This document shows positions 41,739 through 53,225 of a stretch of 64,000 nucleotides of DNA, piece after piece. The stretch's first letter is position 1. Every line of letters starts with the position of its first letter. Source of the stretch: Flectonema sp. DT1601 (lineage: Eukaryota); the NCBI GenBank assembly GCA_964019425.1, contig OZ025793.1:868001-932000 (forward strand), read 5' to 3'. A model generated the notes under the pieces. The model had not been told where the DNA came from, ran no database searches, and worked only from the letters and a program-made list of their open reading frames with translations. The translations under genes and the position numbers were made by a program.

Positions 41739-42375
41739 CCTCTGCCTCTCTCTTAATTCTGTTCGTTTCTTTGAAACGAAAATTCATTTGAATATTATTC
41801 CTTGGTCAGCAACCATCATTGTCGCCCTTTGGGCCTGTTAAAAAAAATAAAAATAAAAAGAAAGTTTACATCGGGAATAGGGCAGGAGCCAAAAGCTCCC
41901 AGTCCGTTACTTCCCACTTTATCGAAATTCAGCTTTTTGTGGAGCTATCCACTCTGCGGTCTTTTTAGGCCCCTCTATCTCCTTTGCTTTATAAGACCCA
42001 ATGTTTCTTCTCATCCAATTGCTTTTCTCAAGTTGCCTCTTCGGCATTCATTTGCCAACCACATTATTTATCAAAATATATATTATAAACAAGTAGTTAC
42101 TCCGATTTTTCTGTTTTAGAGCGTAGCTCGTTTTCCTTTAAACAGTATTTACCAAAAAAAAACTCTAGGGTTAGCTGCCCGAAATTAAAAAAAAAAGGAA
42201 TAGTTTAAAAAAAAAGATCTTAACTCATCGATATTGTTTCTGAGCCATTCTCTTTTCTATTTTTTTTTTTTTTCTTATTATTGCTACTTCACAACAAAAA
42301 AAAAAAGAAACACCGGGCCGGCGGTGTCATAAAGATACTGGTAACCATCTCTCAGCCAACCCAGCCCCCGAGGCT

Positions 42376-45300
42376 TTGCAAGAGGCTATTTCGAGATCGG
42401 CTCTGGATGGGGATAAAACTTTAGTAGCAAAATGTCCTTTATGTTTTGAGACATACCTCAAAGGTCCAGTTGCGCATTTTAGACGTAACTGTAAGTTTAG
42501 TAAGGAATTTAAGGACTATAAGTCACGTTTTCCCCCATCTACCCACTCCCAAGTTAAAGATTGTTACCACTTACCTTGTCCAGATTGTGGTAAGCTTTTC
42601 AAAAGTATCGCTACGAGAGCGAAACACTGTGTTAACGGTACATGTAAAGGTACACCTCTGTCTCCCCTCACAGGGAATAATTCAGACCTGGAACCTCCCT
42701 TTGTAGGAGAATCTGTAGATTTTAAAACTTCACAAACAGCTTTCGTTCCTTATAACTCTACAACACCCACTTTTACCCCGTTACACCCGTCTCGTCTCAA
42801 ATTCCGATCTTTTGGAACTGAATGGAAGGACATCGACGTTTCTGCTGCAGAAAAACTTCAAACTTTCTCCGTCGAAACAGAAAACTCTTCAAAACCTGCC
42901 GACCAACTTGATAAACTACTCAAAACGGTTTATCAAATATGTAGCGGTTTCTTTGAAGAAACAAAGCGGAATTTACCCCGCAAACAGAAATCAAGGGAAG
43001 AGGTCATCCTCGACCAAGAAAAACTTGAATGTCGTCTGGAAATGAAACAGCTAAGACAGGAGCTCCGCAAATCTGGGCCTTCTATAGAGAACGCTGTCAA
43101 ATGGAAAGAGGCAAGAACGAGAATGAAAAGGATTTTCCGAATGTATCGGAATTTAGAAAAGAAAAATTTATTCAAAAAATTACAAGATAAATTTCGTCAA
43201 AATCCGTTTACTGCCATAAAAGAAGAACTCCAAAAAGAAGATCCTCAACCCCCCTCCCTTGATATTCCAGAGGAAAAAATAATTGAACATTTTAAAAACA
43301 ATTATTGTGACAATGAAAAAAAAAAAACTGATTTCACCCATCCCTCTTTTTTACCTAAGTCTGACTACAAGACAATGGATGATATCCAGTTCCCGAGCTT
43401 CGAACAGTTTGGTATTCTCTTATCAAAGAAAAAAAACAAATGTGCCCCTGGTCCCAATTGCATACCTTATGTTGTATGGAAAAAGGTCCCAACTTTTATG
43501 GAAGCACTTTACAAGGTATTAAAGAGAATTTTCGAACTCAAGGCCTATCCGGATAGTTGGGGCTTAGCATTTGTAACAATGCTCCCAAAGCCCAACTCCG
43601 ATGGGAAAGACATCTCGAAAACGAGACCGATAGCTGTGGGCAACTGCGACGGGAAAATTTTTAATACGGTTATTCAGGAAGCCGTCGCAAACCACACTCT
43701 TTCTAAATTTAATTTTCAAAAAGGCTTTAGGAAAGGTGTCTCTGGGTGTATCGAACATGCCACGATCACCTCAGAGATTTTTAAAGAAGTGAAAGCTCTC
43801 CGGAAAAACCTAACAATTGTCTGGGTGGATTTGGCAGATGCTTTCGGCTCAGTCAAACATCAATTAATTTTCTTTGCTTTAAAATATTTCGGAATTCACG
43901 AAAGAATAATCGGTTTCTATAAAAGGTATTATTCCTCCATGCGCGTCCAAATCAGAGTTGGAGAAGGCCTGACGCCCACTATCCCTTTTGAAGTTGGTGT
44001 CTTTCAAGGCTGCGTTTCCTCCCCAACCCTTTTTAATTTGGTATTCCAACTACTGCTCTTTTCCTTAGCAGTTCATCAACAGGAAGCCTACGAGTTTAAC
44101 AATAAATCCCTCCAACTATTAGTTGCAGCTTTTGCTGATGATTTACAACTTACCACGTCATCAAAGGCGGGGGCAAAATTGCTAATCAAGTCGCTCGAAC
44201 AGTTTCTTTCCTGGTCTCGTGGTATGAAAGCGAAACCCCAGAAATGCATTGCCCACAGCTTTGTACAAGGGAAACCAGCTAACCCGGACCTGAAGATTAA
44301 CAATGTTCCGATTACGAATCTCCAGGAAGCTGGAGAGTTCAAATACCTCGGGCGTTGGTTTGAGCCGAACGCCAAAGAACAGAAATTGCGAGAGCGCCTG
44401 ACCACTTTTACCAGGAATTTTTTAAAAAAAAGTCGACGCCATGCCACTATATGGGTCTCAGAAGGCTTGGTCTGTCCAACACTTGTTATTGTCAAGGTTA
44501 ACATGGAGTTTAATGATCCATGACTTATCTCTCCCTTTTGCCAAAAAAATGGACAAAATTATTAAACCTTTTTTGAAGAAATGGTGGGGATTTGTCCGCT
44601 CTGCGAACACAGTCATCCTTTTTACCGGTTCAAAGAACACTGTTGGTCTCAGACACAAAAGAGTTGAGACGCTATATAAACAAGCGCAATCAATTAAACT
44701 AGACATCCTCAGATCCTCACAGGACTCTGACATGCACGGTGTCTACAATGTTATTATGGAGAAATCGTCCAACTGGTCGAAAAAGTTTTCAGCTTCTGCT
44801 GAGTGGGAGCGCCTTATTAAGTTTTTTTCTTACCGTTCTCTTGCGAAGCAATCAGCTGGTCTTGGTCACCGATTGCGCGATCTACGTACTACTCGCCCCG
44901 ATCTCCTTAAGCGTTTTGAAGTGGAAGCCACAGATGAACTACTGAACTCTTTGAATAAATTACAAGTCCAAGGTCAGTGGAAGGAGTGGTCTAAATGTAT
45001 GATAAACGATTTCACCTGGAATAAGGTACTTAGGGAGGGAAATCCTGCCTATATCTCATTTCAACTGAAAGCGGTTACAAACACCCTCCCCTCACAAGAT
45101 AATTTAAAGAGGTGGAACATCACCAATGTGGACCAAAATTGTGTTTTGTGTGGCAAAGTGAATCCTACCCTCAGGCATGTCTTAACAGGCTGTCCTGTCT
45201 CTTTAACACAAGGGAGGTTCACGTGGCGTCACGACAGCGTTCTAAAACGCATTGTTATCTTCTTGGAAGAGTTGATAATAAAAGCCAACAAAAGAAAAGA

Positions 45301-47473
45301 AAACCTCCCGCCTCCCTCTCAAACTTTTTTAAAAACAGGGGAAAATAAACCCCTAGAAAGAATTTCTAAAGAGACAGGCGAACTTTCACTAGCGAATGAT
45401 TGGGTCATCCTCGACGATGTCGGTGATAACCGCCTAATTGTTCCTCTTGAAGTGTGCCATGTCTCGTCCTCTCTAAGACCAGACATTTTTATTTATTCTT
45501 TTTTTGCGAAAAGAGCACTGATTCTGGAGCTGACGTGTCCAAATGAAGATCGTTTCGAAACCTCTCATGTCTTAAAGGAAAAGAAATACCTAAAGCTAAG
45601 AGACTCGATCATCGCTAATGGCTTCGACTGTAACATTTTTACTATTGAAGTTGGCGTACGAGGAAACATCTGCATGGACCAGCTGAACATCTGGACACGT
45701 CACATCGGTTCACCTTTAGCACCAACAAAAGCTTTATTTTGTGAATGCACCAGAATCGCCAGACAGTGCTCATATGTTCTGTTCCAGACGAGGAACCTCC
45801 CCACGTGGCATTCAAGACCACTAATGCGCAGCATTAAAGAAGAACCTGCCACTGCAAGTTTTATAAAAGATGGTAAAGAAATCTTCCCTGTGGAAGAAGT
45901 CAAAATCCACAAAGTAACAAAACTGAAAACGATCGAAAAGCTCACCATTGAAAGATCGTGGCTTGAGAAATGTTTTATCTGGCAAACTTGTTACGCATCG
46001 GCTCTTTCTATTCTACTTATTGCCAATGGTTCTTCCTCCCCGGCCCCTTCTGTTTTGTTAGATGAGGATGAGCTCACTGGACTCTCCTTGTCATTCTCTT
46101 CTATTTCTTCCATCTCTTTCCAGACTCCCCCACCTGAACTCATGTCAACGGGATCGCAAACACTTCCTGCTGATTTCGCTATAGTGATAAGAACTCAATC
46201 TGACATGGGTTCTCAAACCCCCTTGTACAAAAAAAAAGAAGGAAAATTAAGGCTGAAACTTTCCTTGAAATGCCAGATTTTAGAAAACGAATTAGAGCAA
46301 ATGAAAGAACGAATTTTTTATGTTCTATTTTTATTTTACTTTAATGCGATGTCAGCCTCCCTCGAGAAAGACAAGCAGTTACTAAATGGATTACCTGTTG
46401 AGATCAAAGCTACCAACCAGGATCCATCCTCACTTCCTCCTGCGCCCCCTGTTTTAATTATTGAAAAAGATAGAAAAGAATATGAACTTCTGGAAGGAGT
46501 AATTCAACGGTTAACAGCAGAACGCGATGAATCGAAGACTTCTCTTTCTGCACTAGTTCGACAATATGACTTAGTGGAAGATTACAGGAAACGTGAGCTC
46601 GCAAATCTGACTCAGAGAGCAGACCTATCGGAATTGGCGCTCTTTAATTACCATCAAAGGTTTGTTCTTCTGTCGAACGAATTGGAGACCAAATGTAATG
46701 AGGAAAGAGAAAGTAAAATAAGACTTTTCTATACTCAACAGGAGGTCGAGAGTTTGCGTGCCGCGCGTCCCCGTATGACCCACTTTAGTCAACAAGTTTC
46801 CCCCCGAACCCCCGTTCTGTATGAATCTGTTGCTATGATGAAGATAGCAAAGAACTACCTCTCGCTCTTTACAACTACGAGTAGTCTTTTTACTCCTCTT
46901 ATTAAACCCCTTATCCCTACCCTTAATTATATCACCCCTCTTTGTCCTCTAGCCTCAATTCCTCCGACAATGCCGCAGAGTGAAGCTCTCGACCGCACGC
47001 CGACCAAGATTTTACGACAAGAGAGTCACGTTATCTCCGTTAAAGAGAATACACCTATTGCGAGACAATGGTCCGAGGGTAGGATTGACTTACTCGAGAA
47101 TTACTGTCGAGCAGTAGATGACTCTCTCGAAACAAACGAGAAAGCGGCAGAGCTCTCAGAACAACTTCTGGATGCCCAACTTCGCCTCTCGGAGCTGAAT
47201 CACCAACGGTGTACAACTCACGCAGAGCAGCTTGAGCAATCCATGATGTTAACGGGACTGGCGAGCGATTTAAATGCTCAACTCGCCTTGGCACGGTCTC
47301 AAATTGCGGCCCTGAAGTTCCAATTAGCTTCATGGGCAGAAGGTTTGAGTCCGCCAGACACAGAAGAACATGAGGAAAATGAAACTCCGCCGAGAAAGTC
47401 TGAGCGTTCAACTCTGAAAAAAACGAACCCCTCCATCAAGATATCGTTACAATCGAAGGAGATGTTCTGCTGA
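42376..47473 (+). CDS. Retrotransposon polyprotein: 2 N-terminal Zn fingers, RT, CCHC knuckle, PD-(D/E)xK endonuclease, long C-terminal extension; one frameshift at 44424-44431
   Basis: CPLC..H..C and CPDC..H..C; APGPNCI, RPIA, QKGF, WVDLADAFGSVKH, GVFQGCVSSPTLF, AFADDL, FKYLG; CVLC..TLRHVLTGC, RFTWRHDSVL, LRPDIFI..ILELTCP.E..KEKKY. Removing one A from the A8 run gives FLKK-VDAMPLYGSQKAW. Confidence 0.93.
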
Positions 47474-52801: not shown

Positions 52802-52981
52802 ATCTCCCTGCTATCCCTCATATCCCCACAATAATATTATACCTTTTCATTTTCTCTTTCCTTTTCTGGTCTTTTTTTTTTCTTTTTTTTCCTTTTTCAT
52901 ACAACGTTTTTTATTTATATATATATTTTTTTTTTTTTTTTTTTTTCATGTTTGATTATTTCCTCTTCATTTTTTTTTTTC

Positions 52982-53013
<32 letters not shown>

Positions 53014-53225
53014 CCTCTGCCTCTCTCTTAATTCTGTTCGTTTCTTTGAAACGAAAATTCATTTGAATATTATTCCTTGGTCAGCAACCATCATTGTCGC
53101 CCTTTGGGCCTGTTAAAAAAAATAAAAATAAAAAGAAAGTTTACATCGGGAATAGGGCAGGAGCCAAAAGCTCCCAGTCCGTTACTTCCCACTTTATCGA
53201 AATTCAATCGATAAAAAAACAATGA

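Follow-up and report, generated by a model that had tools for sequence, protein, structure and literature searches.

A probable HERO-clade retrotransposon with a satellite in its 3' region, and its nested copies in the genome of Flectonema sp. DT1601

Introduction

How does a satellite several kilobases long come to stand between the gene of a retrotransposon and the 3' end of that same element, and is it copied along when the element moves? The question is raised by a stretch of 64,000 nucleotides from Flectonema sp. DT1601 (assembly GCA_964019425.1, contig OZ025793.1, positions 868,001 to 932,000 of the forward strand), here called the window, whose own numbering is used throughout. Positions 41931-53205 hold a retrotransposon of the kind without long terminal repeats (non-LTR), which encodes a reverse transcriptase (RT) and a restriction-like endonuclease (RLE) and contains a satellite inside its 3' region. 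This element is real and recently active. The answer that we hold with good confidence is that an RT-RLE element, likely of the HERO clade, carries the satellite within a 3' region of 5.7 kb, that the satellite is likely copied along with it, and that the copies have nested in one another. The 3' untranslated regions (UTRs) of R2-group elements are usually short.

The longest copy and its 3' region

The longest copy, E9, occupies 11,275 nt of the plus strand (41931-53205), with position 41931, the start of the longest copy seen, as putative 5' end. Its single open reading frame (ORF; 42244-47503, plus strand) has about 1,750 codons, and 5,702 nt separate the stop from the fixed end (47504-53205). 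An earlier sequence-only reading of the window had put this region at about 5.7 kb and had named, in order, an RT-RLE ORF, a UTR, sub-repeats, a GAGATACC cluster, a satellite and a fixed terminus; the measurement agrees, and every part lies where that reading had placed it. The unique 3' UTR (47504-49120, plus strand) contains diverged hairpin sub-repeats with a GATC stem (47997-48455), a 24-mer with an 87.5% match to the satellite monomer (about 48457-48480) and the GAGATACC cluster (about 48705-48800). It is followed on the same strand by the satellite (about 49120-52790) and by a terminal region (52791-53205) made of a pyrimidine-rich tract, a 3' stem-loop (about 53148-53191) and the fixed end GAAATTC, with no poly(A).

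The satellite of E9 comprises 28 monomers with two hairpins each, in a higher-order pattern in which long (about 137-151 nt) and short (about 111-120 nt) monomers mostly alternate. A 271-nt monomer dimer folded as DNA reaches a z of -3.5, with 1 of 200 shuffles equally stable. The first 200 nt of the element fold no better than shuffles (z -1.4), and no known ribozyme was found at either element end (Rfam, 0 matches at gathering score in the window). Because the upstream sub-repeats share both the hairpin and the 24-mer of the array, the array likely arose in place from the UTR, to judge by these sequence likenesses.

Eleven copies with one 3' end

Is this arrangement peculiar to E9? A census of satellite and terminus over the window counted 160 monomers in 13 arrays and 11 termini, all within an AT-rich block at 16.6-60.4 kb; no monomer core was found outside it (1-16600 and 60400-64000). 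Eleven of the 13 arrays, with 154 of the 160 monomers, belong to units that end in the terminus, the other two being a five-monomer array cut by a miniature inverted-repeat transposable element (MITE) and one stray monomer. These numbers support, at this one locus, the proposal of the sequence-only reading that the satellite is spread as cargo of retrotransposition, and all eleven termini with variable 5' extents that it had listed were recovered. The fixed 3' ends are combined with staggered 5' extents, the un-nested lengths being 151, 162, 290, 1,971, 2,147, 2,255, 3,322, 3,558, 5,306, 5,503 and 11,275 nt; the 5' end falls within the terminal region in three copies, within the array in four, within the unique UTR in two, and in or upstream of the ORF in the last two. 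Together the 11 un-nested copies account for 82% of the block, and the claim that one element built most of it is supported, with the correction that about 10% is a second, related repeat (repeat B) and that a MITE is present besides. That reading had also said that independent units resembling Helitrons or elements with terminal inverted repeats (TIRs) would speak against it; among the 11 units of the window no signs of such a carrier appeared, as the 5' ends all differ and the junctions lack inverted ends.

The 44-kb block is a Russian-doll nest. A MITE hosts Z (20809-56990, minus strand, in two pieces, 56160-56990 and 20809-21948), and Z hosts Y, an older plus-strand copy (21980-56160) in four pieces (about 22000-22448, 25770-26397, 53227-54590 and 55044-56160). 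Y in turn hosts E4, E5, E7, E8, E9 and a second MITE, as well as E6 by way of E5. E4 (22449-25770, minus strand) has 21 monomers and the terminus and sits in the first hairpin of Y; E5 (26398-34158, minus strand) is 5'-truncated, reaches into the ORF (reference position 46784) and has a different UTR variant; E6 (30333-32590, minus strand; 13 monomers and terminus) is nested in a sub-repeat of E5; E7 (34179-34468, minus strand) is a 290-nt terminus copy whose 3' end lies at the GAATA/AACAATG site of Y; and E8 (34469-41930, plus strand), also 5'-truncated, stands head-to-tail before E9 and is interrupted by repeat B. Three copies lie apart from the main nest: E1 (16657-18803, plus strand), with 13 monomers and the terminus, is in host DNA and adjoins a direct repeat of 24-25 bp; E2 (19674-19995, minus strand) joins a 162-nt terminus copy head-to-tail to a 159-nt internal ORF fragment (reference 47183-47341); and E11 (60218-60368, minus strand) is an older 151-nt terminus copy. 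When the proposed insertions are removed, the flanks rejoin in nine of nine cases, with 0-3 nt lost.

The MITE itself is present as an intact copy at 54591-55045, with terminal inverted repeats and a TA duplication, and as a split copy (20638-20808 and 56990-57218). The intact copy lies at the base of the first monomer hairpin, the monomer position that is also used by E5, E7 and E9.

The antisense copy E5 had been taken, at 26398-34153, as an independent witness that the parts of the element keep their order. The order is indeed the same, E5 being collinear with E9 from ORF to array once the nested E6 (30333-32590) is removed, so that the copy is not uninterrupted; its independence holds for the UTR (95% and then 77% identity to E9) and fails for the ORF, with 3 differences in about 717 nt. 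Y carries a UTR of the E5 type (96%), and the join between UTR and array is identical in three variants (E9/E8, E5 and Y). This identical join matters for the possibility that terminus and array form a separate, non-autonomous element resembling a short interspersed nuclear element (SINE), which moved in trans and inserted behind an ORF copy with a short 3' end. Such an origin would account for the seven of 11 units that hold the terminus, or terminus and array, alone, and for the little non-coding DNA of related elements (416-499 nt from the stop to the next ORF in three circularly closed contigs). We nevertheless consider it highly unlikely, because the 5' ends are not the same and may lie at any point of the array, the join recurs unchanged in the three variants, no second 3' end or poly(A) was seen between stop and array, and the upstream sub-repeats share the 24-mer (87.5%) with the monomer.

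The modules of UTR and tail are mosaic between copies, a clear sign of recombination or template switching. Mosaicism would suit a history in which array and terminus multiplied mainly at the DNA level, by unequal exchange, break-induced copying or gene conversion, with the retrotransposon as passenger, and so would the closeness of some neighbours: E8 and E9 differ by 1 substitution and 4 homopolymer indels over 5.3 kb, and E6, which has no target duplication and 3 extra bases, shows 0 mismatches to the 3' part of E5 over 2,255 nt. This history is unlikely, since all 11 units share their 3' end within a few bases, copies of either orientation are found inside other copies, whose flanks rejoin, antisense termini are found at three different ORF positions on other contigs, and a fixed end at unrelated targets is not what recombination predicts. 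The very high identity of E8/E9, of E6/E5 and of two part-units of repeat B, together with homopolymer slips in the ORF, might also be ascribed to assembly duplications of a repeat-rich region. That reading is extremely improbable: repeat B is inserted in E8 and absent in E9, with flanks that rejoin, extra bases are present at junctions, proteins from other contigs show comparable joins, and at most two of the 11 units would be affected.

Junctions and insertion targets

If the copies were laid down by retrotransposition, what do their junctions look like? None of the 11 termini is followed by poly(A), and the flanks have no common sequence; on the 3' side they consist of satellite (three monomer positions), sub-repeat, MITE, host DNA or ORF positions. 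Junctions carry 0-5 extra bases. A duplication of about 23 bp, an A-run plus GAATA, is found on both sides of E5, and the 5' join of Y, possibly also that of E1, contains copies of upstream target DNA. Head-to-tail joins link E8 to E9 and the E2 terminus to its internal ORF fragment, and at the 3' junction of E9 (53206-53254, no strand assigned) the target monomer is duplicated in inverted form with 24-bp arms, in a snap-back-like manner. Snap-back, extra-template and head-to-tail products are all reported for R2 proteins in cells (PMC11371274).

E7 and E9 lie at the same monomer position, point outwards and are of one sequence type, an arrangement that would fit priming from both ends of one break. 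Cutting where the first hairpin of a monomer has its base (E4, and E5, E7 and E9 at one physical site) provides a lead towards the targeting of cruciforms, with which the MITE in another monomer is also consistent; it stays a lead because other self-insertions (E6, Y and those at ORF positions) fall elsewhere. The RLE domain is described as resembling Holliday-junction resolvases (PMC3636483).

Evidence from other contigs

The RT falls in a cluster of 235 European Nucleotide Archive (ENA) sequences on many contigs of up to 1.39 Mb, likely from one organism, the same as that of the window. Among 50 proteins predicted from these contigs and examined for joins (one being the window's own), 11, again including the window's own, have the ORF joined to the family terminus, the satellite or repeat B, and in three of these the joined part is an antisense terminus, at three different ORF positions. 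Nesting is therefore confined neither to the window nor to the satellite. In exact-pattern scans the terminus was not found in metagenome contigs, nor the monomer in genome or viral contigs.

Related elements are smaller. Three metagenome contigs with related elements, each about 4.1-4.2 kb long, are circularly closed and have 416-499 nt from the stop to the next ORF, and among related loci with at least 200 nt after the stop (most of them short, 9 of 33 exceeding 1 kb) no multi-copy long tandem array was seen there. The related elements L021, L033 and L054 (also L025 and L072) are on circularly permuted contigs of 4.1-4.6 kb, three of them with matching ends, which suggests head-to-tail arrays in other organisms.

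The coding region and its C-terminal tail

The ORF encodes, in order, two N-terminal C2HC-like zinc fingers, the RT, a CCHC knuckle, the RLE and a tail of 564 residues. Pfam recognises RVT_1 (E 7e-27) and zf-RVT (E 9e-7), and no Pfam family in the ORF past zf-RVT; the RLE is recognisable in the translation by the motifs WRHD, RPDIF, ELTCP, KEKKY and EVGVRG, aligned with 14 relatives. The closest solved structures are R2 proteins (E 7e-33). The window copy reads as two overlapping frames, 42244-44523 and 44426-47473, with one extra base relative to public contigs in each of two homopolymers, at 44424 and 47417. The public contigs were compared over 41780-47800 only, and none spans that stretch: the homopolymer at 47417 is one base shorter in the contigs of four of four runs, and that at 44424 one base shorter in two of four, two shorter in one and uncovered in one. 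Proteins predicted from other contigs read through the frame break and end in ...GDSTPL. On this evidence the family ORF is a single frame of about 1,750 codons whose end lies at 47503. Ahead of the zinc fingers (42244-42330) there is no in-frame ATG, and a pyrimidine tract followed by AG at about 42308 resembles a trans-splice acceptor.

The tail (about 45812 to 47503, plus strand) extends the protein to 612 residues beyond the last RLE motif. Out of 77 related loci, 33 could be scored for tail length, and all 33 stop 51-83 residues past this motif; so do 21 of 22 scored related proteins, at 48-77 residues past the RLE. The exception, P0032, is a related RT-RLE protein whose tail, 395 residues long, is of a different kind (Pfam PF14487), and tails after the RLE have therefore been gained more than once. 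The tail is under coding constraint: 35 of the 40 listed differences from public contigs lie 5' of 47417, and among these synonymous changes make up 13 of 16 in the ORF core (p 8e-7) and 10 of 19 in the tail (p 0.005), where about 22% would be expected. It is predicted to form long, coiled-coil-like helices. A phmmer search against 1.84 billion representatives found no homologue of the tail outside the family, all 16 matches belonging to the family or its sister; matches in the Atlas (generic coiled-coil clusters, 0.89-0.91, 119-144 shared features) were rejected as homology.

Repeat B and a sister subfamily

Repeat B, with a unit of 1,356 bp, forms a first array inserted in E8 (34625-36780, plus strand), which has a homologous 3' stem-loop at its end, and a second one at 57219-59850 (plus strand) with internal insertions. 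Inside the latter, 58735-59030 is a composite of a single antisense monomer, an internal terminus piece of 50 nt and about 155 nt that are unrelated. Three junctions of the window show repeat B ending at a single position, as does one public contig in which the repeat breaks into the element ORF; repeat and element also share a UTR patch of 95 nt (79%). The stem-loops of the element (A) and of repeat B fold alike, and of the nine pairs all are kept, two of them changed on both sides (compensatory); only that of A beats shuffles (z -2.8). In protein P0265 the end of repeat B is directly followed by the sister ORF. Taken together, these likenesses suggest that repeat B is likely the 3' part of a sister subfamily, and both subfamilies would therefore carry tandem repeats there. 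The sister cluster has 47 members; its enzyme is 98% identical over 813 residues but its tail, which contains no stop, is only 50% identical across the final 360 aligned residues, and the 3' module has thus been swapped.

Classification and known systems

With a single ORF that contains RT, CCHC knuckle and a downstream endonuclease of the PD-(D/E)xK type, and with a common 3' end, variable 5' truncation and neither LTR nor TIR at 11 termini, the element has the features of the RLE (R2) group. RLE elements are divided into five clades, of which four are mostly site-specific and HERO mostly is not (PMC4640811). The 3' flanks of the present copies differ, as they would without target specificity. 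Compared by eye with the rows of supplement file 6 of PMC5678591, the motifs Y-x-x-[YW]K-x-x-P, GK-x-F and GC-x-EH are shared by the ORF and HERO, and do not occur together in the CRE, Dong, NeSL and Utopia rows of part 2 of that file; the best RT-motif match by eye among five HERO-group rows is HERO-1_PP (PMC5678591). The element thus likely belongs to the HERO clade. Like HERO-1_PP, HERO-2_DR and HERO-1_BF it has one ORF with RT, knuckle and C-terminal RLE and, as in many HERO families, no fixed target (PMC4640811). It differs from HERO in its 564-residue tail past the RLE and in a 5.7-kb 3' region with satellite, the UTR lengths of Repbase HERO entries lying outside this comparison, and at 11.3 kb it is much longer than the three closed relatives (about 4.1-4.2 kb).

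Other systems resemble it in part. CRE, SLACS and CZAR of trypanosomatids are likewise euglenozoan RLE elements and have one or two internal repeat regions, but they insert in spliced-leader (SL) genes and end in poly(A) (PMC12278014), neither of which is seen here, and their RT motifs (CRE rows, PMC5678591) differ. Membership of CRE/SLACS was accordingly rejected: poly(A) is absent after 11 of 11 termini, there is no common flank and Rfam gave no match. The site-specific R2, Utopia and NeSL types (28S rRNA, U2 small nuclear RNA and SL RNA) were rejected as well, with no Rfam family at gathering score and flanks that differ. R2 provides the closest solved structures and the same junction types (template jump, snap-back), yet it is specific for 28S ribosomal DNA (rDNA), whereas no rDNA flanks (no Rfam match in the window) and no common target were found. 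Zepp of Coccomyxa/Chlorella is also a non-LTR element, whose copies nest in clusters of up to 42.3 kb, each chromosome having one, for which a centromeric role is proposed; in contrast to the present element, it is GC-rich, and the text on these clusters does not mention satellite cargo (PMC3446292), while here the nesting runs in both orientations. Finally, in the pea Ogre/PisTR-A system variable tandem repeats of the 3' UTR seed satellite DNA (PMC9659126). Ogre, however, is a Ty3/gypsy LTR element, whereas the carrier here would move through target-primed reverse transcription (TPRT), and 5' truncation itself enriches satellite over gene. In titles and abstracts of the open-licence literature, no report that describes this family, or any RLE element having a multi-kilobase 3' satellite, was found; Repbase, subscription papers and preprint supplements may hold similar ones.

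Genomic setting

The block is bordered by host genes on the minus strand, at 1-14.7 kb and 61.7-64 kb. A host peptidase of the window has its best named match in Diplonema papillatum (57%), and transcriptome proteins match it at up to 87%; the host is therefore likely a diplonemid. A strand switch at the block was rejected, since the long host ORFs to its left and right share the minus strand. A telomeric array was rejected as well, as there are genes on both sides, both orientations are present and the contig on which the peptidase lies measures 345,763 bp.

Several further features accompany the block. At 60611-61294 (plus strand) a 227-residue frame has a weak match to DNA_pol_viral_C (E 0.0035); we take it to be likely the RNase H part of a DIRS/TATE-like element. 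A piece of about 100 bp similar to this frame (16464-16565) lies between two copies of a duplication of about 108 bp beside E1. Short GTGAAAATGT repeats at 19130-19290, a stretch that is joined to an ORF copy on another contig (P0237), constitute another repeat family. At 61725-63998 (minus strand) a long Cys-rich host ORF of at least 758 residues with repeated modules likely encodes a secreted or surface protein.

Mechanism and significance

How, then, would the element multiply its satellite? Its protein would bind the 3' stem-loop of its own RNA, and the RLE would nick DNA with little sequence preference. Reverse transcription would begin at the fixed end, copying the terminus of about 0.4 kb and then the array, and would usually stop early (seven of 11 copies end within terminus or array), so that most events would leave behind satellite and terminus but no gene. 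The head-to-tail joins would result from template jumping, and the inverted junction from snap-back. That copies have piled up in one island is likely due to a tolerance of gene-free DNA, together with some preference for earlier copies, and the tail, as a predicted coiled coil, could hold the protein to the chromatin of the island.

Several observations weigh against this account. The support for the satellite as cargo comes from one locus, at which the limits of the excisions were chosen by eye, few copies have a clear target duplication (1, possibly 2, of 11) and E6 and E8 are almost identical to their neighbours, as duplication at the DNA level would also give. About ten of the 50 proteins join the ORF to non-family sequence, about as many as to family sequence, and the entry of the MITE and other repeats into the island weakens the case for active self-targeting. 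As to the stem-loop, the last 186 nt of the element (the A end) reach only z -1.5 against shuffles, the hairpin of repeat B alone is no more stable than shuffles (z -0.6 and -0.3), and the compensatory change counts as a single event separating two lineages and not as four. The HERO assignment depends on motifs compared by eye, and the single-sequence model of the tail has low confidence (pLDDT, the predicted local distance difference test, 48), too weak for a fold search.

What the preferred reading offers is a way, direct and open to test, in which a non-LTR element could give rise to satellite DNA: an array placed beside the 3' end would spread far more often than the gene, because reverse transcription starts there and mostly stops early. 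Its precedents are Ogre, which is an LTR element, and satellites that only later derived from 3' parts of long interspersed nuclear elements (LINEs), and a centromere atlas describes three routes from transposon to tandem repeat, all by recombination (bioRxiv 10.64898/2026.09.17.752431). We infer that the RLE protein handles a template whose length is over twice the usual one and whose fixed end, not a poly(A), is marked by a small compensated stem-loop, which bears on R2-type gene-insertion tools.

A further, doubtful suggestion is that the element builds the centromeres of diplonemids, or equivalent islands, by targeting its own copies, adding AT-rich hairpin repeats of nucleosome size and tethering through a captured coiled-coil tail. 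A centromeric role is possible because diplonemid kinetochores are unresolved (bioRxiv 10.1101/2024.08.06.606595); if true, a retrotransposon would be manufacturing and renewing the satellite that it inhabits. In the description of the D. papillatum genome, long repetitive stretches with many transposable elements lie between clusters of genes, and the rigorous identification of these elements is, by that account, still to come (PMC10161547). The element family described here is a concrete candidate for the builder of such long repeat regions in diplonemids.

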